Below, piece after piece: positions 7,372-58,405 of a stretch of DNA of 64,000 nt. The DNA is taken from positions 6,281 through 70,280 of the forward strand of contig JACRMB010000010.1 of NCBI GenBank assembly GCA_016235065.1, in the 5' to 3' direction. Made by a program: the position numbers and the translations under genes. The notes below the pieces were generated by a model. That model did no database searches, was not told the origin of the DNA, and saw only the letters and a list, made by a program, of their open reading frames with translations. Position 1 is the first letter of the stretch. The number at the start of each line of letters is the position of its first letter. Origin of the DNA: Actinomycetota bacterium. GTDB lineage: Bacteria; Actinomycetota; Thermoleophilia; BMS3ABIN01.

Positions 7372-7449
7372 CCCCCTTGCTTATCTGCTATTTTGATTAA
7401 GCAATATCCTGGCCCGCCACGGGCCGGGAGACCCCGCGAAAAGATCCTG

Positions 7450-8487
7450 ATGCCAGTGAAACGAAAAGCCTTAGCCCTGCTCTCCGGCGGCCTCGACAGC
7501 CGCCTGGCGGTCAAGATGATGCTCGAACAGGGCATCGAGATAGAGGGACTCAACTTCGTGACCGTGTTCTGCACCTGCACCGCGAGGAGCAGCTGCAAAT
7601 CCGAAGCGAGGAAGGCCGCCGAGGAGTACGGCATCCCGCTCAAGGTCCTCAACGCCACCGACGAGATCCTCGAAGCCATCGGCAACCCCAAACACGGTTT
7701 CGGCCGCGGCCTCAACCCCTGCCTGGACTGCCGTATCAGCATGTTCCGCCGGGCCGGCAGGTACATGAAAGAGACCGGGGCTGATTTCCTGGTGACCGGT
7801 GAGGTCTGGGGTGAGCGGCCCATGTCCCAGAGGCCGGACGCGCTGGCGACCATCGAGAAGGAATCCGGCCTTGCCGGGCTTATCGTGCGCCCGCTGTCGG
7901 CTCACCTCTTCGAGCCCAGCATCCCCGAGCGCGAGGGCTGGATCGACCGGGAGAAAATGATGGCGATCAGCGGCCGTTCCCGCAAACCCCAGATGCAGCT
8001 GGCCCACGAGCTGGGCGTCAACGACTATCCCTGCCCTGCCGGCGGCTGTCTGCTCTGCGACAAGAATTTTGCGGCCCGCCTCAAGCACCTCCTCCAGGAA
8101 GATCCCAAGCCCGCGATCGCCGAGATCCAGGCTCTGAGACTCGGGCGGCTCATCTTTTCTTCCGGGGGGAAGCGGATCATGATCCCAAGGAACGAGGAAG
8201 AGACCCAGCGGCTCGTGGCGCTGGCCCGTCCCAGCGACCTGCTCATGAGCGCCGAAGATCACATGGGCCCCACCGCCGTCATCAAGGGCAGCGAGATCGA
8301 CGAGGCGACATTGCAGGAAGCGGCGGCGCTGACCGCCCGCTACGGGCAGGGACGCGACGAGGAGAAAGTGACCGTATCTTACTGGCCCGCCGGCCAGGAA
8401 GTGGACGGCGGTTCCCCGGATCGCCATGCCCTGACTGTCTCCCCCGCTGATGGCTGGCGGCTGGCGGACTCGCTCACCCGGGAATAG
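7450..8487 (+). CDS. PP-loop ATP pyrophosphatase, ThiI-like adenine-nucleotide alpha-hydrolase domain without a THUMP domain, with a C-terminal extension of about 150 aa. Probable sulfurtransferase.
   Basis: The SGGLDS PP-loop sits 10 residues after the MPVKRK start. NPCLDC and CPAGGCLLC cysteine motifs are present. ATG 7450 chosen over the TTG at 7393. Confidence 0.65.
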   Translation: MPVKRKALALLSGGLDSRLAVKMMLEQGIEIEGLNFVTVFCTCTARSSCKSEARKAAEEYGIPLKVLNATDEILEAIGNPKHGFGRGLNPCLDCRISMFRRAGRYMKETGADFLVTGEVWGERPMSQRPDALATIEKESGLAGLIVRPLSAHLFEPSIPEREGWIDREKMMAISGRSRKPQMQLAHELGVNDYPCPAGGCLLCDKNFAARLKHLLQEDPKPAIAEIQALRLGRLIFSSGGKRIMIPRNEEETQRLVALARPSDLLMSAEDHMGPTAVIKGSEIDEATLQEAAALTARYGQGRDEEKVTVSYWPAGQEVDGGSPDRHALTVSPADGWRLADSLTRE

Positions 8488-8628
8488 GGAACTGACGGGG
8501 CCGCGCTCCGGTCCAGCCTTCACATGCCTTCTTTCTTATGCCTGCCGTTCTACCTCGGGATGAATCCTTTCCCCATGCGAAACATCTAAGGTATTAAATA
8601 GCGCAATGAAGGGTCCAGTACGAGGAAC

Positions 8629-8684
8629 GATTGCACAGATAAAGTGCGAAGCTCCCGATTACACAGATAAAGTGCGAAGCTCCC
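8629..8684 (+). repeat. Tandem direct repeat, 2 x 28 bp, one mismatch
   Basis: gattgcacagataaagtgcgaagctccc followed by gattacacagataaagtgcgaagctccc, directly abutting the AGGAGG Shine-Dalgarno of the next ORF. Confidence 0.8.
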
Positions 8685-8696
8685 AGGAGGTAACAG

Positions 8697-9044
8697 ATGT
8701 CAGTGAATGACAAGGTTGAGATCCCGGTATTCGGGTCACGGTACCTGGACTCCTGCTCCGGCGGTTGAGGCCCCAGCTGGTCTCTGGAAGAGATCACGGA
8801 GCATATCAACAGGCAGCTTGACCAGGATTTTGGCGGGACCGCCCAAATCCGGTATGTGGATTTCGATTCGCCGGAACTCTCGGAATTCCCGGAAGTCTAT
8901 CAGCGGGTGGCTGTTGACCGCGACCTTGAACCCGGCACGATCCTGTTCAGGGGTGAACTGGTGCCGATATGGGATGTCCAGTACAACCGCCTGACCGAAG
9001 AGTTCGTGAAGATGGGCGCAGAGCCCGTCCGCAAGGCTTCGTAG
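8697..9044 (+). CDS. Candidate 115-aa protein with one in-frame TGA at 8766-8768. It is either a selenoprotein or an interrupted pseudogene.
   Basis: AGGAGG then a 6-nt spacer then ATG at 8697. MSVNDKVEIPVFGSRYLDSCSGG-TGA-GPSWSLEEITEHINRQLDQDFGGTAQIRYVDFDSPELSEFPEVYQRVAVDRDLEPGTILFRGELVPIWDVQYNRLTEEFVKMGAEPVRKAS-stop, in a single frame. A 6-bp stem-loop starts 11 nt after the TGA. Confidence 0.35.
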
Positions 9045-9163
9045 TACCTGCTCCAGCAGAATGAATAAAGGACGGCCATGGCGCCGTCCTTTTTTTGTCC
9101 GTTTCGAATGCATCCGCCGCCAGGCCAACAATCGGCCACCAGAGCGTCGCGCACCGGCCGCGG

Positions 9164-10138
9164 CTACTTCGCCAGCACTCCCAGCAGCTGCCACAGATCC
9201 AGGTCGAGCTGCTTGGTCTTCGCCGCGACTTCCTCCAGCGGGGTCAGGGCGATGCCGCCGTCGATCCAGCCTGCCAGCCGGCCGCTGCCGCCTCCAGCCA
9301 GGAACTCGACTGCCGCCGCTCCCAGCCGGCTCGCCAGTATCCGGTCGAAACTGGATGGCGCTCCACCGCGCTGTACGTGCCCAAGGATCGTGACCCTAAG
9401 TTCATAGCCGATCTCGTCCTCACGCGACCGGAAATATTCCATGCATCGCTGGGCGTTGTTACGGGCGCCGTCGGTGACGACAGCCAGCGCGTAGCGCTTG
9501 CCACGGGCGTGGGCCGCCGCCAGCTGCTGCTCCACCTCGGCGGGCTCGATATCGAACTCGGGCGTAACGATGACGTCGGCGCCCCCGGCCAGCCCCGCCG
9601 CCAGCGCCAGGTAGCCGCAGCTCTTCCCCATGACCTCGATGAGAAAAGCCCGGTGGTGCGACTCGGCGGTAGTGCGGATGCGGTCGATCGACTGGATTAT
9701 TATGTCGAGCGCCGTGTCGACGCCGATGGTGATGTCCGAGCCGTGGAGATCGTTGTCGACAGTGGAGGCGACCCCGGCCACAGCCAGTCCCATCCTGCCA
9801 AGCTCATGGGCGCCCGCCTGGGAGCCGTTGCCGCCGATGACGATCAGGCCATCGATGTTCTCGCGCCGCAGGTTCTCCACCGCCCGGCCCCTGGCAGCCT
9901 CGCTCTCGCGGAACTCCCGGCTGCGGGCCGTCCCCAGGAAGGTGCCGCCCAGGTGCAATATCTCGCTGACGTCACGGTTCCCCAGGGGGATGACGTCGCC
10001 TTCGATCAGGCCCTCGAAGCCGTTGCGGACCCCGAACATCTCCATGCCGATGTCGGTGCCCACCCGCACGATAGCCCGGACCGCCGCGTTCATCCCCGGC
10101 GCGTCGCCGCCACTGGTGACGACTGCTATGCGTTTCAT
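9164..10138 (-). CDS. pfkA: ATP-dependent 6-phosphofructokinase. Atypical GGNGS in place of GGDGS.
   Basis: 324 aa with MKRIAVVTSGGDAPGMNAA, TVDNDL and HVQRGG. GGAGG Shine-Dalgarno upstream. Confidence 0.9.
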   Translation of the reverse strand: MKRIAVVTSGGDAPGMNAAVRAIVRVGTDIGMEMFGVRNGFEGLIEGDVIPLGNRDVSEILHLGGTFLGTARSREFRESEAARGRAVENLRRENIDGLIVIGGNGSQAGAHELGRMGLAVAGVASTVDNDLHGSDITIGVDTALDIIIQSIDRIRTTAESHHRAFLIEVMGKSCGYLALAAGLAGGADVIVTPEFDIEPAEVEQQLAAAHARGKRYALAVVTDGARNNAQRCMEYFRSREDEIGYELRVTILGHVQRGGAPSSFDRILASRLGAAAVEFLAGGGSGRLAGWIDGGIALTPLEEVAAKTKQLDLDLWQLLGVLAK

Positions 10139-13692: not shown

Positions 13693-14739
13693 TTACGCGA
13701 AGAACGTCTGCGCCAGGTCCCAGAACTCCTGCCTAACGACCTTGCGCTCGCCCACCGCGACCTCGAGCGGTACGGCCACTATCGCGTCGCCCTGCAGCGC
13801 AGCCATAAGGCCGAACTCCTCAGCCTGCACCATTTCGGCGGCCTTTGCCCCGTAGCGGGTCGCCAGGATGCGGTCGTGAGCAGTCGGAGTGCCGCCGCGC
13901 TGGATATGCCCCAGAACGGTCGCCCGGGTCTCGAAACCGGTTCGGCGCTCGATCTCCTTGGCCAGCAGGTTGGCGACGCCTCCCAGCTTGACGTTGCCGA
14001 ACGCGTCGACCTCGTCGGACTGGGTGACCATCTGCTCCTCGCCTTCCTTGGTGACCAGCTTCGCGCCTTCGCTGACAGCGACGATGCTGAAGTTCTTGCT
14101 GCCCGACTGGCGGCGGCGGATGATATCGCAGGCCTCCTCGACGGAGACATCATATTCAGGGATTAGGATGACATCGGCGCCGCCGGCGATACCGGCCATG
14201 ATCGTTATCCAGCCGGTGTGCCGGCCCATGATCTCCACGACGATGACGCGGTCGTGGGATTCCGCGGTCGTGTGCAGCCGGTCGATGTTCTCGGTCGCGA
14301 TCTGCACGGCGGTGTCGAAGCCGAAAGTGTAGTCGGTCCCGGAAAGGTCGTTGTCGATCGTCTTGGGCACGCCCACCATGTTGAGCGCGTATTTGCCATG
14401 GAGCTGGTTGGCCACGCCCAGGGTGTCGTCGCCGCCGATGGCGATGGTCGCCCAGATCTCATTCTGCCGCAGGTTGTCGACCAGCAGCTCGACGCCGCCT
14501 TCGGTCTTCATGGGATTGGTACGGGAGGTCCCCAGGATGGTGCCGCCGCGATGCAGGATACCTGAGATAGTATTTATGTCAAGAGTCATGTAATCGTTCT
14601 CGAGCAGGCCCCGCCAGCCGCCGTGGACGCCGACCATCTCGTAGCCGGCCCGGGTGAGCTTGAGGGTGGCCGCGCGGATGACCGCGTTGAGTCCAGGGCA
14701 GTCGCCGCCGCCGGTAAGGATCGCAACCTTCTTCGCCAT
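13693..14739 (-). CDS. pfp: 6-phosphofructokinase with pyrophosphate-dependent signatures (GGDD, PKTIDND)
   Basis: MAKKVAILTGGGDCPGLNA start at the ATG at 14739, with GGAGG upstream. The track's ORF extends to 14940. IGGDDTL and VPKTIDNDL are present. Confidence 0.85.
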   Translation of the reverse strand: MAKKVAILTGGGDCPGLNAVIRAATLKLTRAGYEMVGVHGGWRGLLENDYMTLDINTISGILHRGGTILGTSRTNPMKTEGGVELLVDNLRQNEIWATIAIGGDDTLGVANQLHGKYALNMVGVPKTIDNDLSGTDYTFGFDTAVQIATENIDRLHTTAESHDRVIVVEIMGRHTGWITIMAGIAGGADVILIPEYDVSVEEACDIIRRRQSGSKNFSIVAVSEGAKLVTKEGEEQMVTQSDEVDAFGNVKLGGVANLLAKEIERRTGFETRATVLGHIQRGGTPTAHDRILATRYGAKAAEMVQAEEFGLMAALQGDAIVAVPLEVAVGERKVVRQEFWDLAQTFFA

Positions 14740-14964
14740 CAGAAAACCTCCATTTTGCCGTGGGTTGATCTGCATGAGGTCAGGCCCCGCGGCGCGATGG
14801 CACCAGCCAACGGCGAGACGGAACCAACCAGTAATTGACAAGGGGAATAATATCTTGTGCGCGGAAGGAACGAAACCCGGGATCCTGATCGGGCGGCGAT
14901 CACCGGAACCGGTATATGGACAACCGGGTCCTGCCGGCATGGCCGACCGGATACTGCGGGAAGG

Positions 14965-15162
14965 CTAGCAGAGGGTTAGTTGCTCCGTGGTCATGTCGTT
15001 ACGCGCGGCGATCACTGCCCTGTCGAAAGTCTTCAGACAGTTGCTGCAGATAAAACCATTCCGTTTTTCTGACCAGGAAACGGTGGCCTTTTTATGGCAG
15101 CAATGACATGGGAAGCTGGCCGAGCTGTGTGTTTTTTCAAGTGAGTCGGTCATGGCGATCAT
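14965..15162 (-). CDS. Small zinc-ribbon protein, possibly YacG-like
   Basis: 65 aa. CHCC-HKKATVSW...FICSNC looks like the YacG pattern C-x2-C-x-K-x-V-x-W...F-C-S-x2-C. Weak ribosome-binding site. Confidence 0.35.
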   Translation of the reverse strand: MIAMTDSLEKTHSSASFPCHCCHKKATVSWSEKRNGFICSNCLKTFDRAVIAARNDMTTEQLTLC

Positions 15163-15366
15163 TATACATATTCCCCGGCGAGCCAGGCTTACCTGCGGAA
15201 TGGGGGCGGGTATCGAGACCCGGTCCTGCTAAAAACCCGCTACACCAGCGTAATCCGGTAGCCCGCAAATCTCATTGCACAAAAATCCGAGCATAATAGT
15301 CAGGTTTTATAAGCAAACCTGATAGCATCTGCCACACTCTCGCATAACCCGCATGGCTTCCATCTA

Positions 15367-15394
15367 TTGAAATGTATGCATATGTGCGTACAAT
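15367..15394 (+). promoter_or_regulatory. Sigma70-like promoter (TTGAAA, 16-nt spacer, TACAAT)
   Basis: -35 TTGAAA at 15367-15372 and -10 TACAAT at 15389-15394, in an AT-rich intergenic region. Confidence 0.35.
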
Positions 15395-15400
15395 GGTTGT

Positions 15401-15636
15401 ATTAGCCTCACTGAAGGGTAAAGCTCACCTTCCTTGAGGACGATTCATTTTATGAAGCAGCAAACAGCCGAGAGCTGTTTCTGCTTCGTGATTTGCTCGC
15501 GCGGGTAAGAGAGACCAGCGCAGAACGACAGCCATGTGCCGTAAAATGTCTTCGTCTGTGAATCCCGCCCTCCACAGGTGGACGTGCGAGCAAGTATTTC
15601 AAGAGCCGCCCGCAAGGGCGGCTCTTTTCTTTTTGG
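15401..15636 (+). ncRNA. Candidate small RNA of about 235 nt, unknown family, between the predicted promoter and an intrinsic terminator
   Basis: No plausible plus-strand CDS. It contains a 17-codon Cys-rich ORF (MKQQTAESCFCFVICSRG) and ends at a strong terminator. Confidence 0.3.
15602..15636 (+). terminator. Intrinsic terminator
   Basis: agagccgccc-gcaa-gggcggctct followed by ttttctttttgg. Confidence 0.6.
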
Positions 15637-15769
15637 ACTGCAGATAACGCCATATTCAATTCCATCAAAAGCTAGGCAAAGCCGTAGCTGTGTTGATTAC
15701 AAACAATACGCGAGACAGGCTGATTGACAAACACCTTTCTGCCCGCCGCCACGGATCCGTCAATACTGG

Positions 15770-15801
15770 AAAAAAAAGAACCGCCTCCTGGGCAGTTCTT
15801 T
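15770..15801 (-). terminator. Intrinsic terminator of rpmF
   Basis: Minus strand agaactgcc-cagga-ggcggttct followed by U8. Confidence 0.5.
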
Positions 15802-15849
15802 TAAGACACATCAATATTTAGATCAGGGGCAGCCGAGGGCTGCCAGGTC

Positions 15850-16029
15850 TTACTCCTCGAAGGCTATGACCTCACGGCCCTTATAAGTACCGCAGACCGG
15901 GCAGACCCGGTGCGGCTGCTTGGGGCTATGGCACTGGGGGCACGTGTTGATCGTCGGGGCGGTCAGACTGTCGTGCGCCCGGCGCTGGTCCCGCCTAGCT
16001 TTGGAAGTTTTTCTCTTGGGTACGGCCAT
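15850..16029 (-). CDS. rpmF: 50S ribosomal protein L32
   Basis: Manual translation gives [59 protein letters not shown]. It is below the ORF track's 60-aa cutoff. Confidence 0.9.
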
Positions 16030-16099
16030 TTGTGGTTACCTCTTTCTATTTACCAAGGATGTAGAATAGCGGAACCAGCCTGTAAAGTAAAACCAAAAG

Positions 16100-23689: not shown

Positions 23690-24166
23690 CTACTTCATTG
23701 TCTTTACCAGCTGGGCCATCTCGATGGCGCCGGCTGCTGCCTGCCAGCCCTTGTTGCCGGCCTTGGTGCCAGCCCGTTCGACGGCCTGCTCGATGGAATC
23801 GGTTGTGAGCACACCCATGGCTACGGGCACCTTGGTATCCATGGCGATCTTAGCGATGCCCTTGGATACCTCACCGGCCACATAATCGAAATGAGGCGTG
23901 CCGCCACGGATGACCGCGCCCAGGGCGATCACGGCGTCGTACTTGCCGCTCTCGGCCATCTTGGCCGCCACCAGCGGGATCTCGAAGGCACCGGGGACCC
24001 AGGCTACCTCGATAGCGCCCTTGCCGGCTCCGTGCCTGATGATGCAATCCACAGCGCCGTCCAGCAGGCGCAGAGAGATGAACTCGTTGAATCGGGCGAC
24101 GACGATGCCGAACTTCAGGCCCTTGGCATCGAGCATCCCTTCGTAACTCTTGTATTTTTCCGCCAT
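23690..24166 (-). CDS. ribH: 6,7-dimethyl-8-ribityllumazine synthase
   Basis: 158 aa with a typical RibH sequence ([11 protein letters not shown]...WVPGAFE). Confidence 0.95.
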
Positions 24167-24226
24167 CAGCTGATCCTTTCTGTCAGTTTTTCCGGTCCTG
24201 CGGCTGCGAGTGGCCTGCCGCCGGTT

Positions 24227-25516
24227 TTACTCGCTCGTCTTTTCCTCTTCCTCGCCCTCGAACCTGAGGTCCTGGTGATGGAGGATATGTCCCATCTTCG
24301 CCTTCTTGGTGGCGAGGTATGCCACGTTCTCACACTGGGGCGGCATCTCGATTGGCACTCTTTCCACGATCTTGAGCCCATATCCTTCCAGACCCTTGAT
24401 CTTTTTTGGGTTATTGGTCATCTGGCGGATAGTAGTCAGACCAAGGTCCACCAGTATCTGGGCGCCGATGCCATAATCGCGAAGGTCAGCGGGAAAGCCG
24501 AGCTCCTCGTTGGCCTGGACCGTGTCCATGCCCTGCTCCTGCAGTTCGTAAGCACGCAGCTTGTTGAGGATGCCGATGCCGCGTCCTTCCTGTGACATGT
24601 AAAGCAGAACGCCCTTGCCGTCCTCGTCGATCATGCGCAGCGCATGGTTGAGCTGCTCACCGCAGTCGCAGCGCATGGAGTGGAAGACATCGCCGGTCAG
24701 GCATTCCGAGTGCACCCGCACCAGCACGTTCTCCGCGCCGTCCACGTCACCCTTGACCAGAGCCACATGCTCCTCATTATCCAGCAGGCTGCGGAAACCG
24801 ATGGCGCGGAAGTCGCCATATCTCGTCGGGAGCCGCGCGTCGGCGACACGCTGCACCAGCTTCTCGTTCTTGCGCCGGTACTTGATCAGGTCGGCGACGG
24901 TTACCATCTTGAGGTTGTGCTTCTTGCAGTAGGGGATCAGGTCCGGCACTCTCGACATGGTGCCGTCCTCGTTCATGATCTCGCAGATGACGCCGGCGGG
25001 CTCCAGCCCGGCAAGACGCGCCAGGTCGACGCCGGCTTCGGTCTGGCCGGTGCGCTCAAGCACTCCGCCCGGTTTGGCCCTCAGTGGGAACACATGGCCG
25101 GGCTGCACCAGATCAGTGGGCTTGGCGCCTGGCTTGATGGCGGTCTGGATGGTGTGCGCCCGGTCGGCTGCCGAGATGCCGGTGGTGACGCCGTGGCGCG
25201 CTTCCACGGAAACCGTGAAGGCGGTACTGAAGGTGGCCTCGTTGTTCTGGACCATCTGGGGCAGGTCGAGTTCGATGCACTTCTCCGGGGTAAGGGTCAG
25301 GCAGATGAGCCCGCGCCCGTACATGGCCATGAAGTTGATGGCGTCCGGCGTGGCGAACTGGGCTGCCATGGTCAGGTCACCCTCATTCTCCCTGTCCTCA
25401 TCATCGCAGACGACGACTATCTTGCCGGCCTTGATGTCCTCGATTGCTTCTTCGATGCTGCTGAACGGCGAGTCCGCAGCTTTTGCTTCCTGGTTTTCCA
25501 TTTCCTTTTCTCCCAT
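24227..25516 (-). CDS. ribBA: Bifunctional 3,4-dihydroxy-2-butanone-4-phosphate synthase / GTP cyclohydrolase II
   Basis: DHBP synthase N-terminal half plus a GTP cyclohydrolase II half (CDCGEQ). Start taken at ATG 25516 (GGAAGGA upstream); an alternative ATG lies at 25501. Confidence 0.9.
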
Positions 25517-25642
25517 TTTTCCTTCCTGCTCCCTAAGTTGTTTGACACTTTGCAGTATTTCTATTGCTGACACTTTATATATTCATACAATCGCTATTCG
25601 AATCAGCGGACCCCTGAAGCGGTCCCGCCTGACAGCCAGAAT

Positions 25643-26296
25643 CTACAAAAATCCCCCCTCTGCCAGCTTTTCAAGGGTCAGGCCGCCTTCGCCATGGCCT
25701 CCGGGAAGACCGCCGCGCATGATCTTCTCAACATACTTGCCCAGCACGTCGGCCTCAAGGTTCACAAAGTAGCCGACTCCATGGTGGCCAAGGGTTGTGA
25801 CTTTGACCGTATGCGGGATCAGCGAGACGCTGAACTGCTCTCGCTCCAGCCTGGCGATCGTCAGGCTGATGCCGTCGATGCCGATCGAGCCCTGGGGCAG
25901 CAGGTAGCGCCGGATCTCTTCCGGAGCTGAAAATGTATAAAAGATAGCGTTGCCTTCAGGACGGATGGAGACGATCTTGCCGACGGCGTCAACGTGGCCC
26001 AGCATCAGATGCCCCCCGAGCCGCGCCGAAAGCGTCAGAGCTCTTTCCAGGTTGACGATGCTGCCACGCTTGAGATGTCCCAGGTTTGTCTTCCTCAGGG
26101 TCTCGGGCATCACGTCGGCTGAGAAAGTGCCGCTGCCAAAATCCCTGGCGGTCAGACAGACACCGTTGACCGCGATGGAATCGCCCAGCTGGCATCCCTC
26201 GAGGACCTTGTCCGCTTCCACTGTGATGACGCCCGAGTCGGAACCCATCTCCAGGCTGACGAGCTTGCCAAGTTCTTCAACGATACCGGTGAACAT
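25643..26296 (-). CDS. ribE: Riboflavin synthase alpha subunit
   Basis: MFTGIVEELG start; two lumazine-binding repeats. Confidence 0.9.
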   Translation of the reverse strand: MFTGIVEELGKLVSLEMGSDSGVITVEADKVLEGCQLGDSIAVNGVCLTARDFGSGTFSADVMPETLRKTNLGHLKRGSIVNLERALTLSARLGGHLMLGHVDAVGKIVSIRPEGNAIFYTFSAPEEIRRYLLPQGSIGIDGISLTIARLEREQFSVSLIPHTVKVTTLGHHGVGYFVNLEADVLGKYVEKIMRGGLPGGHGEGGLTLEKLAEGGFL

Positions 26297-26332
26297 CTAG
26301 CGAACCTCCTCGCTGGGGAAAAGAAAGGCCAT

Positions 26333-27457
26333 CTACCATTCCTCCTGAGTGGTGTAAGCGGTTATCAGCACGTCATCGCCGACCGCCTTGTGTTTGACCC
26401 TGTAAAGCGGCGTCGCCTCGCCCACCAGCCGGAAACCGCGCCCTTCGACCGGAGTGCGCGCATCCTTGCCGCCGATGAATTTCGGCGCTACAAAAGTCAT
26501 GACCTTGTCGATAGCCCCGGACTCCACGAAAGAAGCCGCAAGCGTCGGTCCACCTTCAAGCAGGAGGCTGAGGGCAGCGGGCTCGCGGGAGCCAAGATGC
26601 AGCAGCGCTTCGCCTACGTTCACCTGGCTGTCCAGGGTCCCGGTCCGGACGACCTCGACTCCGGCGTCCTTGAGCGCCTTCACTTTTTCCTGGGTTGCGG
26701 CCTCGGTGACGAAGACCAGCGTCGCTACTTCACCGGCGGTCTTCACAAGCTGGCTCTCCAGGGACAGTCCAGCCTTCGAATCGAACACGACCCTTAGAGG
26801 TTGCTTGTAATCGCCGGGTATGCGGCAGGTGAGCATGGGATCGTCTATCTGGGCGGTGCCGCTGCCACAGGCGATGGCGTCGACCTCGCCCCGGAGCGCA
26901 TGTACCAGCGCCCGGCTTTCCTCGCCGGATATCCACTTGGAATCGCCAGTCGAGGTCGCTATCTTGCCATCCAGGCTCATGGCGCTCTTGAAGATGACAA
27001 AAGGCAGCCCGGTAACCGCATGCTTGCGGAAGGCTTCGTTCTGGGAACGCGCCCGGGCGGCCAGCAGACCGTCGAGCACTTCGACTTCGATGCCAGCCTC
27101 ACGCAGCTGCTCCAGGCCCTTGCCATTGACCTTCGATGACGGATCGAGAGAAGCGACGACGACCCGGGCGATGCCCGCATCGATCAGCGCGTTGCTGCAT
27201 GGGCCTGTGCGGCCATGATGGCAGCAGGGCTCGAGGGTCACGAAGATAGTGGCACCCCTGATGTCGCCGGTTGCCGATTTGATCGCGGCCACCTCGGCAT
27301 GATCGTCTCCGGCACGCTTGTGATAGCCCTCGCCGATGACTTCCTCGCCACGAGCGATCACAGCACCCACGGTAGGATTGGGGCTGGTCTTGCCCCTGGC
27401 CAGATCGGCCAGGTTGAGCGCCCTTTGCATGAAACTTATGTCGAGTCCGGTAACCAT
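26333..27457 (-). CDS. ribD: Bifunctional riboflavin biosynthesis deaminase/reductase
   Basis: CMP/dCMP deaminase motif (HAE...PCxxC) plus a reductase domain, 374 aa. Confidence 0.9.
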   Translation of the reverse strand: MVTGLDISFMQRALNLADLARGKTSPNPTVGAVIARGEEVIGEGYHKRAGDDHAEVAAIKSATGDIRGATIFVTLEPCCHHGRTGPCSNALIDAGIARVVVASLDPSSKVNGKGLEQLREAGIEVEVLDGLLAARARSQNEAFRKHAVTGLPFVIFKSAMSLDGKIATSTGDSKWISGEESRALVHALRGEVDAIACGSGTAQIDDPMLTCRIPGDYKQPLRVVFDSKAGLSLESQLVKTAGEVATLVFVTEAATQEKVKALKDAGVEVVRTGTLDSQVNVGEALLHLGSREPAALSLLLEGGPTLAASFVESGAIDKVMTFVAPKFIGGKDARTPVEGRGFRLVGEATPLYRVKHKAVGDDVLITAYTTQEEW

Positions 27458-27654: not shown

Positions 27655-27825
<171 letters not shown>

Positions 27826-54630: not shown

Positions 54631-56427
54631 TCAGACGGCCTCTCTCAGACTGCTCTTCCCCTCAGATCTTGCAAGGCTGACGAACATCTTCACAAGCCGC
54701 GGGTCAAACTGGGTGCCGGCGCCCTTTTCGAGCTCGGCCAGAGCATCATTCACAGAAAGCGCCTTGCGATAAGGCCTGTCTGAGCGCATGGCCCGGTACG
54801 CGTCCATGATACCGACGATTCGCGCCATCAGCGGGATCTGCTTGCCCTCTAGCCGTTCCGGATAACCCGTGCCATCCCAGCGCTCGTGGTGATATAGAAT
54901 GGCGCTGATCAGTTCCTGAAGCTGCCGGGCCTCCTCAAGGATATGCTGGCCGATCTCCGGATGCTGCTGCACCGCAGCCAGCTCCTGGGGAGAGAGTTTA
55001 TCCTTCTTTGAGAGGATCGCTCCGGGAACACCTATCTTGCCGATATCGTGCAGACGGGTCGCCAGGGCCAGCGCGTCCGCCTGCTCGTCTTCCATTCCCA
55101 GTTCCTTCGCCATCGCGTCGACGATAGCGTTGAGTGACATTGTGTCGCTGACGGAATAATTATCGCTTGCATCCACTGCCTCAGCCAGAGCACGGATAGT
55201 CTGCAGGCTGGCACCCTCCAGGCGACTGTTGAGCCGTTCGATATCGCCTTCCTCGAGCTCCGTCCCTGAGAGGTCCCGGAAATAAGCGACCCGGTTCCGT
55301 CCCCTGCGCTTGGCGAAAAGCAATGCCGAATCGGCTGCCGATATCAGGCTGTCGGCATCGCTGGCACAGTCGGGCATATCAGCGACCCCGAAGCTTGCGG
55401 CAACGATATTCTCCGGCAATTCCACGTCCCTGGCGACATCCTTCATCAGCCCCCTGAGCCTGTCGGCCGTCTCCATGGCTGTACTCGCAGCTGCCTCAGG
55501 CAACAGGACGATAAATTCTTCGCCACCGTATCGGGCCGTATAGCCACCCTCATGGACCTCATTGCGCAGCAGTTTTCCGACCCGCCGCAGCACTTCGTCA
55601 CCCTTCTGGTGACCGTACCGGTCGTTCACTGTCTTGAAATGGTCCAGATCCAGCATGATCATAGAGAGGGGTTTGTGACGGGACTCAGCTCGATCCGCTT
55701 CCCACCTCAGGTGATGCTGAAAATGGGCGTGGTTGCGAAGTCCCGTCAAAAGGTCGGTGTCAGCCATCTCCCGAGCCTGCCTGTGGAGCAGCTCCAGCTC
55801 GGCATACTGGTCCTTCAGTTCTTCGTTGGCGGCCGCCAGCAGTTCTTCTTTCTCACGAACGGCCAGCATCAGGCTGTTGAAGTTCTCGCCGATCTCATCG
55901 ATAGGATTCTGCCCTACCGCATACCGGTAGACTTCGCACTCAGAACAGCCACCCAGCTTCTGGGCGAACCGCCCCTGGACCTCTCCACCACAGTAAGTCC
56001 CCGCTACGAGCCAGCAGCGGACATGCTCCTTTCCGTATGCCGGGCACGATGTCTCACCACAGTCCTTGATCTGCCAGCAGGTCCCGATATTCTCATCTTC
56101 AAAACTGACGTCCCATACCTGTGCCTGCACCGCGTCGTGCGTCAGGCTGGAGAATCTCGATTTTGCCCCTTCGAGCTCTGCTTTTCGCTGCGCCAGCTCC
56201 ATGTTCCTCTGGTAAAGGGTGATCTTCACGAGGTAGTAGCAGAACGCGCCGACAAGAAAACCCGCAACCAGGCAGGCAAACCTGAAATACAGCTTGCGAT
56301 CCGGATCCCAGGTAACAAAGGGGCTTGCGATATATGGAAATACCAGGCCCATGGTCAAACCGAAAGCGATCATGACCATAAAAATACGCCTCATGGATGA
56401 AAGACGCTCCGCGAAAAATCGTATCAT
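54631..56427 (-). CDS. Membrane-anchored GGDEF diguanylate cyclase + HD-GYP phosphodiesterase with a 7-Cys module
   Basis: 2 TM helices, then CWQIKDCGETSCPAYGKEHVRCWLVAGTYCGGEVQGRFAQKLGGCSECEVY, then GGEEF, then HDIGK...HHERWDGTGYP. GGAGG Shine-Dalgarno. Confidence 0.85.
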   Translation of the reverse strand: MIRFFAERLSSMRRIFMVMIAFGLTMGLVFPYIASPFVTWDPDRKLYFRFACLVAGFLVGAFCYYLVKITLYQRNMELAQRKAELEGAKSRFSSLTHDAVQAQVWDVSFEDENIGTCWQIKDCGETSCPAYGKEHVRCWLVAGTYCGGEVQGRFAQKLGGCSECEVYRYAVGQNPIDEIGENFNSLMLAVREKEELLAAANEELKDQYAELELLHRQAREMADTDLLTGLRNHAHFQHHLRWEADRAESRHKPLSMIMLDLDHFKTVNDRYGHQKGDEVLRRVGKLLRNEVHEGGYTARYGGEEFIVLLPEAAASTAMETADRLRGLMKDVARDVELPENIVAASFGVADMPDCASDADSLISAADSALLFAKRRGRNRVAYFRDLSGTELEEGDIERLNSRLEGASLQTIRALAEAVDASDNYSVSDTMSLNAIVDAMAKELGMEDEQADALALATRLHDIGKIGVPGAILSKKDKLSPQELAAVQQHPEIGQHILEEARQLQELISAILYHHERWDGTGYPERLEGKQIPLMARIVGIMDAYRAMRSDRPYRKALSVNDALAELEKGAGTQFDPRLVKMFVSLARSEGKSSLREAV

Positions 56428-56455
56428 CTTGCTGCCTCCGACCTTTTCCTGGAAC

Positions 56456-58252
56456 TTAGCCTGCCTGGCGTAATTCCTGATCTTCCCCGCTCTTTACCAG
56501 CTCCACGAATATCTCAACCAGCTGTGGATCGAACTGGGTACCTGCGCCCTTCCGCAACTCTTCCAGTGCGACTACAGGCTTCAAAGCTTTGCGATACGGC
56601 CTGTCGCACAACATAGCCCGGTATGCGTCCATGATTCCTACAATGCGAGCCATGACCGGGATCTGCTCACCTGCCAGCCGCTCCGGATAGCCATTGCCAT
56701 CCCAGCGCTCGTGGTGATAAAGGATCGCCTGGATCAGGTCCTGTATCTGCTCTGCCTCCTGGAGCAGCTTCTGGCCGATCTCGGGATGCAGCTGAACCTG
56801 GGAAAGCTCCTCGGGCGAAAGCTTCTCAGTCTTTCTGAGGATGGAACCCGGGATGCCCACCTTGCCGATATCATGCAGCCTCGTGGCTAGAGCCAGGGCG
56901 TCCGTCTGTTCCTGGTTCATGCCCAGCCGCTCCGCGATAGCTACAGCGACATGCGCCATCCTGGAAGTACTCGCTTCAGAGTAATCGTCGCAGGCATCCA
57001 CGGCTTCGGCTAGGGCTCTAATGGTCTGCAGGCTGGCGCCCTCGAGGCGGCTGTGCAACTTGTCGAGGTCACCATCGCGCAGCTCGGTGTCTGAAAGGTC
57101 ACAGAAATAGGCAACGCGGTTGCGGCCCTTCCTCTTGGCAAACAAAAGGGCAGAATCAGCGGCGGATATAAGACTCTCAGCGTTGCTGGCGCAGTGGGGC
57201 AGATCGGCGACCCCGAAGCTCCCGCCAACAAGGCCGGAAGGCAGATCGACCTCCGCCTCGACGCTACTCATCTCACGCCTCATGTTGTCAGCGATTTCCG
57301 TCGCCCTCTCAGCAGTCATATCTGGCAGCACTAACGCGAACTCCTCCCCGCCATAACGCGCCGAGTAGCCCGTCCCACGCACACTGTTACGGATGAGCTT
57401 TCCCACGCGCTGAAGGACTTCATCGCCCTTCTGATGGCCGAAATGATCATTGACGTCCTTGAAGTGGTCGAGGTCCAGCATGATCAATGAAAGCGGCCTG
57501 CTGTATCGCTGGGCCCGCTCCACTTCCCACTGGAGATGCCGCTGGAAGTGGGCGTGGTTTCTCAGACCTGTAAGCATATCCGTATCAGCCATCTCCCGAG
57601 CCTGCTTATGCATCAGCTCGAGCTCTGTATACTGCTTCTGCATCTCGGCATTGGTGTCGCTCAGAAGATCTTCCTTCTCGCGCAGCGCCCACATGAGGCT
57701 GTTGAAATTCTCACCTATCTCGTTGATCGGATCGCGGCTGACAGATACCTGGTATATCTCACATTTTGCGCAATCCCCGAGCTTCTGGGCAAAATGTCCC
57801 TGGACCTCTCCGCGGCAAAAAGTACCGGCGATCAGCCAGCAGCGTACGTGCTGCCTGCCATAGGACGGGCAGTCCTCGGATTTGCAGCCTTTGACCTCCC
57901 AGCAGGTGGGAATGGAAGGATCCTTGAAACTCACGTTCCAGTCTTTTTTGGTGATAGCGTCGTGGGTCAGCGTGGAGAACTTGGTCTTGGCTTCAAACAG
58001 CATGCTCGACTGGTGGTGGATTTGATCAGATTCCCGGCCGATGACAAAGGCTGCGGTCCCACCCAGAACAGGCGCTACGAGGATATGCATGGCTTCATAA
58101 TCCGCGCCATACCGCATTTCCACAATATATGCGAAAAGGGCATACACAAAGCCCGCAGCAGCCCCGGCGATGCCGTAGTTCAAGGCCTTTCGACTGTGGT
58201 TTGTTGCCCTCACGACCGCCCTGTCAGTGGAAGAAACAGCTAAAGCTCCCAT
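56456..58252 (-). CDS. Paralogous GGDEF + HD-GYP membrane protein with the same 7-Cys module
   Basis: Same architecture, with CWEVKGCKSEDCPSYGRQHVRCWLIAGTFCRGEVQGHFAQKLGDCAKCEIY. ATG 58252 chosen over 58369. Confidence 0.8.
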   Translation of the reverse strand: MGALAVSSTDRAVVRATNHSRKALNYGIAGAAAGFVYALFAYIVEMRYGADYEAMHILVAPVLGGTAAFVIGRESDQIHHQSSMLFEAKTKFSTLTHDAITKKDWNVSFKDPSIPTCWEVKGCKSEDCPSYGRQHVRCWLIAGTFCRGEVQGHFAQKLGDCAKCEIYQVSVSRDPINEIGENFNSLMWALREKEDLLSDTNAEMQKQYTELELMHKQAREMADTDMLTGLRNHAHFQRHLQWEVERAQRYSRPLSLIMLDLDHFKDVNDHFGHQKGDEVLQRVGKLIRNSVRGTGYSARYGGEEFALVLPDMTAERATEIADNMRREMSSVEAEVDLPSGLVGGSFGVADLPHCASNAESLISAADSALLFAKRKGRNRVAYFCDLSDTELRDGDLDKLHSRLEGASLQTIRALAEAVDACDDYSEASTSRMAHVAVAIAERLGMNQEQTDALALATRLHDIGKVGIPGSILRKTEKLSPEELSQVQLHPEIGQKLLQEAEQIQDLIQAILYHHERWDGNGYPERLAGEQIPVMARIVGIMDAYRAMLCDRPYRKALKPVVALEELRKGAGTQFDPQLVEIFVELVKSGEDQELRQAG

Positions 58253-58405
58253 CGGTCCCGGATGAACAAACTTTAAATAGCCCTTCTTTATTTGAAGGGG
58301 TTCCACGGAAAGGGTTGAAACAACTACCTGTGGGCTTTTTGAAGCCCGGTAAATACGGTGATTATCCATGATTCGAGCCTGGATAGCGGAAATGGAGTCT
58401 TACTG

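Follow-up and report, generated by a model that had tools for sequence, protein, structure and literature searches.

A predicted thioredoxin-fold selenoprotein family with an invariant in-frame hairpin in Thermoleophilia-type actinobacteria

Introduction

In the 64,000-nucleotide stretch of actinobacterial DNA that we analyzed (the window), a reading frame with a strong ribosome-binding site is interrupted by a single TGA. Is this codon a stop, a lesion in the gene or the sequence, or a site at which selenocysteine (Sec) is inserted; and, if Sec is inserted, to which family does the protein belong and what might it do? The initial annotation of this DNA, made from the sequence alone, had listed the gene as a selenoprotein candidate; that reading is now supported by conservation of the TGA among homologues, by a homologue with Cys in its place, and by a hairpin of the SECIS type. 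Here we describe the gene, its homologues, the selection that acts on protein and RNA, and the genome neighborhood, and we use the fold and motif of the protein to propose a function.

Results

The reading frame and its features

The features of the locus are collected in Table 1. They agree with the initial annotation, which had placed an ATG at 8697, 6 nt after a perfect AGGAGG, at the head of a frame of 115 codons that is open to 9044 except for one TGA, with a Cys located four residues ahead of the UGA (a C-x3-U arrangement). In the homologues (vide infra), AGGAGG or GAGG-type sites are found at the same place and precede ATG, TTG or GTG start codons. The C-x3-U spacing is that of most members of the family; in L001 and L002b the spacing is x4, the result of a one-codon insertion that in L001 is a single Ser codon ahead of the TGA.

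Table 1. Features of the selenoprotein locus and its surroundings, in window coordinates.
Feature	Position	Strand	Remarks
PP-loop ATPase (ThiI/MnmA-like) with NFACT-R_2 RNA-binding domain	7393..8487	+	Directly upstream; start codon uncertain
Promoter-like block	8561..8598	+	TGAATC at 8561-8566 and CATCTAAGGTATTAAA at 8583-8598; the latter contains a TANNNT-type TAAGGT
Shine-Dalgarno AGGAGG	8685-8690	+	6-nt spacer to start codon; read from the sequence
Predicted selenoprotein CDS	8697..9044	+	ATG at 8697; 115 codons, candidate Sec at codon 24, 114 residues
Cys20 codon TGC	8754-8756	+	Partner in the C-x3-U center; TGC or TGT in all homologues, invariant as Cys
In-frame UGA (candidate Sec24)	8766-8768	+	Sole TGA in frame 8697-9044
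Predicted extended SECIS element	8766..8808	+	UGA pairs with UCA at 8806-8808 at the stem base
Predicted SECIS core hairpin UGGUCUCU-GGA-AGAGAUCA	8778-8796	+	8 bp, loop GGA, 10 nt after the UGA
Invariant stretch TGGTCTCTGGAAGAGATCAC	8778-8797	+	20 nt, no change in 14 Sec forms
Stop codon TAG	9042-9044	+	Ends the 115-codon frame
Bidirectional intrinsic terminator	9067..9099	.	10-bp stem with 6 G-C pairs, T-run on the + strand

The UGA is conserved in homologues that public annotations truncate

With the U-to-C protein as the query, we identified two relatives. One, P0001 (locus L002a), is a full-length protein of 112 aa that has Cys (TGT) in the column of the UGA, CSGGCGRRWSLEE; translation of the UGA as Cys therefore retrieved a full-length Cys homologue that aligns at the codon in question. 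The other, P0002 (locus L001), is a 65-aa fragment, and the DNA 5' of it is in frame and contains the same TGA and the same hairpin. A further 11 loci came from GTDB genomes and JGI metagenomes that we scanned, and 7 more from look-ups of more divergent members. The DNA came from MAGs and metagenomes with the labels Thermoleophilia, Gaiellales or "Actinomycetes". The TGA is found in the same column and the same frame in each of the 21 distinct Sec-form homologues, which are from independent assemblies and share 40-97% identity with the window protein. The Cys form, L002a, and a Sec paralogue, L002b, are tandem genes on one 1.26-kb contig.

When we searched 5.8 billion proteins with a profile, 33 relatives were recovered. 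All except P0001/L002a, the lone Cys form, are C-terminal fragments of 45-90 aa (32/33) that are publicly annotated as "hypothetical protein", so the ratio of Sec to Cys forms is roughly 32 to 1. C-terminal fragments are the usual output of gene callers for selenoproteins, and the DNA upstream of these 45-90 aa entries is in frame and conserved; judged from their sequences, the entries are gene-caller truncations at the predicted Sec codon. We also searched 1.84 billion representatives exhaustively with an HMM, whose profile lacks its N-terminal 24 columns because most of its rows are fragments; of the 14 matches, the real ones are again truncated fragments, and four long, repetitive proteins are spurious. 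None of the homologues that we found ends or restarts at the position of the UGA.

Most selenoprotein families have many Cys homologues. The single Cys homologue in this family is atypical in that respect, and we counted it against the Sec reading.

Purifying selection acts on both sides of the UGA

We calculated pooled Nei-Gojobori pS and pN over the Sec forms by segment. In the 15 aligned codons before the UGA, pS is 0.59 and pN is 0.054 (pN/pS 0.09); in the 3 codons just after it, pS is 0.52 and pN is 0.032 (pN/pS 0.06); and in the remainder of the gene, pS is 0.60-0.66 and pN is 0.24-0.26 (pN/pS about 0.40). The low ratios on both sides of the UGA establish that both sides are coding in this frame; the flanks that had been described in the initial annotation as protein-like are under measurable purifying selection, upstream and downstream alike.

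These values bear on the two alternatives that the initial annotation had itself raised, a recently inactivated pseudogene and a sequencing error at the TGA. Beyond the bare in-frame stop codon, nothing favors either; 21 independent assemblies, from different samples and sequencing projects, share the TGA, and pN/pS is 0.06-0.09 around it. Recurrence of the TGA and purifying selection together exclude these explanations for practical purposes, and we assign them a negligible probability.

A third alternative is that the UGA is a true stop, that is, that the locus encodes a 23-residue peptide and perhaps a separate downstream protein (62 aa from GTG 8856). The public annotations, which call only the C-terminal 45-90 aa, are in line with this, as is the presence of 8856-9044 as an ORF in the window ORF list. 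However, the called starts vary among the homologues, so that the products range from 45 to 90 aa; the alignment of homologues contains no shared start codon after the UGA, and none before the region in which the amino acid sequence is conserved; and the 29 codons from the UGA to GTG 8856, in which no start is shared, are conserved as protein with synonymous variation. In addition, the Cys paralogue is one continuous protein of 112 aa, and the predicted fold requires strand 1, which is encoded 5' of the UGA. We therefore consider termination at this codon to be highly improbable. The description of the locus as two separate ORFs was rejected for the same reason, that is, coding constraint extends across the UGA without a shared downstream start.

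In the window, TGA terminates 10 of the 20 genes that were verified with Pfam; because TGA is an ordinary stop in these genes, the genetic code is standard, and reassignment of the code is ruled out. We also screened the window and 13 loci by coding potential (codon usage), looking for ORFs that a single TGA interrupts. The screen returned the present family, one adjacent pair of genes in the same frame, and three short candidates with low scores; it did not establish a second selenoprotein gene in the window and these 13 loci.

An invariant hairpin of the SECIS type follows the UGA

The initial annotation had pointed to a small stem-loop, GGTCTC-TGGAA-GAGATC, at 8779-8795, which begins at the 11th nucleotide after the TGA; the stem-loop is present, and folding extends its stem to 8 bp. 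The five codons of the hairpin (S-L-E-E-I) are each represented by a single codon in 14/14 Sec forms, whereas among 33 other conserved columns with degenerate codons just 3 are monomorphic; given this background, five in a row have a naive probability of about 6e-6. Five consecutive synonymous sites are, then, frozen: in the 14 Sec forms pS is 0 in the hairpin, compared with 0.5-0.66 in the neighboring segments. A 17-nt core, GGTCTCTGGAAGAGATC, is identical in 22/22 loci, including those of the most divergent members. The conserved peptide WSLEEI could account for part of this invariance, but not for the frozen synonymous sites.

The Cys paralogue provides the comparison. Its corresponding codons are TCC CTC GAA GAG GTC, with three substitutions that disrupt the stem; the energy of the core fold is -7.6 kcal/mol in the Sec form and at best -3.4 kcal/mol in the Cys paralogue. 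Because the hairpin is frozen in the Sec forms and broken in the Cys paralogue, the constraint acts at the level of the RNA, and only in genes that contain the UGA.

The window has a single copy of the 19-nt core, with 0 copies expected in shuffles. The stability of the 71-nt fold is not unusual relative to shuffles (z = 0.07), so the support for the hairpin comes from its conservation and not from its energy. No compensatory covariation was detected with RNAalifold, since the hairpin shows no variation. Pairing of the UGA with the UCA at the base of the extended element is predicted in 11/14 Sec forms and in the fold of the alignment, and this lower stem is a prediction only, given that it shows no covariation. 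A search of Rfam with positions 8400-9200 gave no matching family at E <= 10.

The published model for bacterial SECIS elements has a loop of 3-9 nt on a stem of 4-16 bp, a loop pattern N1-G-G-N-N2 in which N1 pairs with N2 (i.e., G in the first two loop positions), a distance of 16-37 nt between the UGA and the loop, and an MFE at or below -7.5 kcal/mol (PMC13188914). In the present family, the apical loop is GGA or UGGAA, the upper stem has 7-8 bp, the loop follows the N1-G-G-N-N2 pattern with N1 and N2 paired, and the UGA-to-loop spacing is 16-17 nt; the energy of the core is close to the limit of the model on its permitted side (vide supra), and the 45-nt segments fold with -10.8 to -17.0 kcal/mol. 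The hairpin as measured agrees with the published model on every count (PMC13188914).

Selenocysteine machinery and recoding without selenocysteine

Genes for selA, selB, selD and tRNA-Sec were not found in the 64-kb window or in the locus flanks examined: no tRNA-Sec was detected when the window and 12 loci were scanned for tRNAs, and the 30 window ORFs that were annotated with Pfam, all housekeeping, include no sel genes. In the literature we found no report of Sec use in Thermoleophilia or Gaiellales; the nearest Sec users documented there are other deep-branching Actinobacteria, such as Rubrobacter xylanophilus, which has a tRNA-Sec (PMC1794560, PMC5330540).

The absence of Sec machinery from the window and the flanks examined would be consistent with an alternative in which the UGA is read through or recoded without Sec, by a near-cognate tRNA (Trp or Cys) or by a suppressor tRNA specific to the lineage, with the hairpin as a stimulator of read-through; a conserved hairpin near the stop, as in some read-through signals, is also in keeping with this possibility. 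However, the only homologue without the UGA has Cys, so the two forms are a classic Sec/Cys pair; the UGA is located within a redox-type C-x3-[U/C] motif; the loop sequence and the spacing of the hairpin fit the bacterial SECIS model; and deep-branching Actinobacteria are documented as Sec users (PMC1794560, PMC5330540). We regard recoding without Sec as very unlikely.

On the evidence of the aligned sequences, the UGA at 8766-8768 very probably specifies Sec, and the gene very probably encodes a genuine selenoprotein. By analogy with characterized bacterial systems, the in-ORF hairpin would bring SelB and Sec-tRNA(Sec) to the ribosome, and Sec would be delivered at 8766.

A thioredoxin-like fold without a match to known families

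The AlphaFold2 model of the Cys paralogue (pLDDT 82.9, pTM 0.72) has the topology beta-alpha-beta-alpha-beta-beta-alpha, which is thioredoxin-like, and in it the reactive motif follows strand 1 and precedes helix 1; the active-site loop is modeled with pLDDT < 50 at residues 15-22. The motif of the window protein in the loop from strand 1 to helix 1 is YLDSC-SGG-U-GPSW; that of the family is [FY]GSR[YFW][LFQ][DE]SC-x(2,3)-G-U-G-P-[ST]-W-S-L-E-E, with W replaced by R in the most divergent member. The closest structural matches of the model are the YuzD-like protein 1xg8 and ArsD, with SelW lower. Thioredoxins, YuzD-like proteins and ArsD have redox or metal-binding cysteines at this position of the loop.

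The sequences themselves lead to no known family. Scans of Pfam and NCBIfam (release 20) with the U-to-C protein and 18 members gave no family at E <= 10, and a profile search against the sequences in the PDB gave only chance matches (E >= 0.09). Alignments with hhalign to YuzD-like 1xg8 and to ArsD are not significant (probability 0.1% each), so the similarity to these proteins is at the level of the fold only. The initial annotation had likened the protein to small thioredoxin-fold selenoproteins of the Rdx type; the thioredoxin-like fold is borne out by the AlphaFold2 model, but the Rdx assignment is not, as no match to PF10262 was obtained.

Several differences separate the family from its nearest structural and functional relatives. 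The YuzD-like proteins (DUF1462; e.g., 1xg8, S. aureus SA0798) have a CxxC motif, in contrast to C-x3-U here, and sequence homology to them is undetectable (Pfam E > 10); also, Sec forms make up nearly the whole of the present family, its members are limited to Thermoleophilia-type MAGs, and their gene context differs. ArsD (PF06953; 3ktb, 3kgk, 3mwh), for which there is no profile match, binds its ligand with three cysteines, C12, C13 and C18, whereas only two ligand residues, Cys20 and Sec24, are conserved here; ArsD is encoded in ars operons, and there are no ars genes near the present gene. In the Rdx family (SelW/SelT/SelH, with the bacterial SelW-like proteins of PF10262), the motif is CxxU and not C-x3-U or C-x4-U.

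The recent inventory of prokaryotic selenoproteins includes thioredoxin-like families (PF13192 Sec.1 and Sec.2, SaoT, VPGUxxT, and the HUIPC-motif family) that, like the present one, have Sec in a redox-type motif and a SECIS element within the ORF (PMC13188914). Nearly all of the 119 families in Table 1 of that inventory have a defining Pfam, NCBIfam, cd or PTHR model, and a CxxxU motif is absent from all 119 as they are listed there (PMC13188914). Relative to the families as that inventory catalogues them, the Sec:Cys ratio of the present family is inverted. With no match in Pfam or NCBIfam, the two model collections that were scanned, and no CxxxU motif among the entries of that table, we conclude that the family is new. 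This is, to the extent that the table covers known families, a previously unrecognized thioredoxin-fold family of bacterial selenoproteins, found so far only in Thermoleophilia-type actinobacteria.

The genome neighborhood

The gene directly upstream encodes a PP-loop ATPase with an NFACT-R RNA-binding domain (Table 1). In Pfam it matches NFACT-R_2 (9e-16), ThiI (4e-11) and tRNA_Me_trans (7e-8); in NCBIfam only sub-threshold matches to ThiI and MnmA were obtained. In every locus for which sufficient upstream sequence is available, the PP-loop/NFACT-R gene adjoins the selenoprotein gene on its 5' side and has the same orientation. No terminator-like site is located between the two genes. Outside this pair the context varies on either side: pfk occurs in only some of the loci, L018 and L022 have an extra gene or ORF, and in L019 and L020 a DUF523/TudS gene (2-thiouracil-desulfurase type) overlaps the start of the PP-loop gene. 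The surrounding region of the window is of a housekeeping nature (trp, corA, pfk, rib, leu, dnaE, recG and recQ) and contains no tRNAs. Because the genomes are related and the entire neighborhood is syntenic, the linkage to the PP-loop gene is suggestive only, that is, weak evidence of a shared function.

When the intergenic regions of the orthologues are aligned, the promoter-like block between the two genes is seen to be retained, and it precedes both L002 paralogues. A scan with the sigma-70 consensus called no promoter upstream of the selenoprotein gene; since the block is not called by that scan, it is a putative promoter. The terminator downstream is common to the selenoprotein gene and the convergent pfk, and it is conserved in L001 and L002.

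Discussion

Proposed function

The fold and the motif suggest that Cys20 and Sec24 would undergo a selenenylsulfide cycle in the active-site loop, and the structural model makes a selenol/thiol oxidoreductase or sulfur-relay protein the assignment that we favor, as a little better than an even bet. The genome neighborhood offers the most likely candidate for its client, the ThiI-like PP-loop/NFACT-R RNA-modification enzyme encoded directly upstream. The PP-loop enzyme has no rhodanese domain and would need an external sulfur carrier or reductant; the selenoprotein could reduce a catalytic disulfide or persulfide of this enzyme, or it could carry sulfur. A specific partnership of the two proteins is a tentative proposal that we consider rather unlikely.

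A more elaborate proposal combines the two genes with the frozen hairpin. In it, the selenoprotein would be a dedicated chalcogen-relay or reductase subunit of the PP-loop/NFACT-R enzyme, whose gene has a DUF523 neighbor in one lineage, in a selenium-dependent pathway of RNA thiolation, dethiolation or selenation that is specific to Thermoleophilia, and the invariant 17-20 nt core would reflect an unusually sequence-specific recognition of the SECIS element by SelB in this lineage. Taken together, these are speculative, and we consider the combination unlikely.

The main functional rival to a redox or relay role retains the selenoprotein and changes its chemistry: as a metal(loid) chaperone or sensor that resembles ArsD, the protein would bind As(III), Hg(II) or Cu(I) with Cys20 and Sec24, possibly across a dimer, and its adjacency to the PP-loop gene would be a matter of synteny only. 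ArsD binds soft metal(loid)s in this way, with the cysteines of its loop. However, ArsD gave neither a Pfam match nor an hhalign probability above the 0.1% already noted, the family has two chalcogen ligands in place of the three cysteines of ArsD, and neither the window nor any flank contains ars, mer or cop genes. We judge metal(loid) binding to be distinctly unlikely, and a thiol/selenol redox or sulfur-relay role is the one that we carry forward.

Implications

Thioredoxin-fold selenoproteins that are decoded with SECIS elements are a well-known kind, and new families of them are still regularly reported; because the kind is already familiar, the surprise of this one for the specialist is moderate. 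The family is absent from Pfam, from NCBIfam release 20 and, as far as its table of 119 families extends, from the 2026 inventory (PMC13188914). Because every public gene call is a truncated "hypothetical protein", the counts for the selenoproteomes of Thermoleophilia and Gaiellales are too low.

The family also provides a clean case in which to ask why Sec is retained, as it is almost exclusively composed of Sec forms and its one Cys paralogue is encoded in tandem with a Sec copy. The invariance of the core of the in-ORF SECIS element is unusual, given that the proteins share only 40-90% identity. Finally, the fixed place of the gene behind that for a predicted RNA-thiolating PP-loop enzyme provides a testable hypothesis, namely that in these actinobacteria selenium chemistry may be connected to the sulfur chemistry of RNA.

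Upstream region of the selenoprotein gene

Most orthologues retain a block with the form TGAATC ... CATCTAAGGTATTAAA 5' of the selenoprotein gene; in many of them a C(T)CCGAAA motif follows a few bases 3' of the block. This block, at which a scan for the sigma-70 consensus made no call, probably acts as a promoter or operator. The 5' leader in the window also contains a tandem duplication of a 28-bp unit, CGATTACACAGATAAAGTGCGAAGCTCC, whose copies are 96% identical. The leader in a close relative (locus L001) does not contain the duplication, which is therefore recent and specific to the window.

Table. Coordinates of the features in the window and in related loci.
Feature	Position	Strand	Remark
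TGAATC ... CATCTAAGGTATTAAA block	window 8561-8598; equivalent positions in L001-L013		5' of the selenoprotein gene
Tandem 28-bp duplication	window 8628-8684		3' end abuts the Shine-Dalgarno sequence of the selenoprotein gene
Phosphofructokinase paralogue 1	window 9164-10138	(-)	convergent with the selenoprotein gene
Phosphofructokinase paralogue 2	window 13693-14940	(-)
Riboflavin operon ribD-ribE-ribBA-ribH	window 23690-27457		FMN riboswitch upstream
FMN riboswitch RF00050	window 27700-27820	(-)	111 bits
Two adjoining paralogous GGDEF + HD-GYP-type (HD_5) proteins	window 54631-58369	(-)
DUF523 gene (PF04463, 2-thiouracil-desulfurase-type)	L019 / L020 1247-1711 (GCA_014859345.1)
Tandem Cys + Sec paralogues	L002 575-913 and about 1110-1257

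Genome context

In the homologue loci L019 / L020, the selenoprotein gene is the last member of a three-gene cluster, that is, DUF523, the PP-loop/NFACT-R gene and the selenoprotein gene, with an overlap between the DUF523 gene and the beginning of the PP-loop/NFACT-R gene. DUF523 is itself among the selenoprotein families in a 2026 inventory of prokaryotic selenoproteins (PMC13188914); the L019 / L020 copy contains no in-frame TGA.

The two phosphofructokinase paralogues in the window share about 38% identity. Several related genomes (L005, L007, L008, L011, L014, L018, L019 and L022) lack paralogue 1, which converges on the selenoprotein gene. The 1.16-kb interval at 14941-16099 contains no ORF above the codon-usage score; the matching interval in related loci encodes a small protein of 59-62 aa (ribosomal protein L32) and, in L001, additionally a histidine kinase. 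Elsewhere in the window, the occurrence of two neighbouring GGDEF + HD-GYP-type paralogues suggests tandem c-di-GMP turnover enzymes.

Public annotation and a Cys/Sec tandem pair

In the NCBI annotations of metagenome-assembled genomes, the family gene is called as a "hypothetical protein" of 45-70 aa in Thermoleophilia or Gaiellales bacteria (e.g., ACYCXU_08910, Q7K29_06910, IBX61_06330, C4534_02905, WC911_03990 and ACYC4D_08500), and every one of these short calls, among them the database relatives P0003, P0010, P0021, P0026, P0035 and P0039, is truncated at the Sec codon. On the single 1.26-kb contig of locus L002 the family is represented twice, in tandem, by one Cys and one Sec paralogue, each preceded by its own copy of the promoter-like TGAATC ... 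CATCTAAGGTATTAAA block; the Sec copy was overlooked by the gene caller, with a spurious minus-strand ORF annotated in its place. The Cys paralogue could be a selenium-independent back-up copy.
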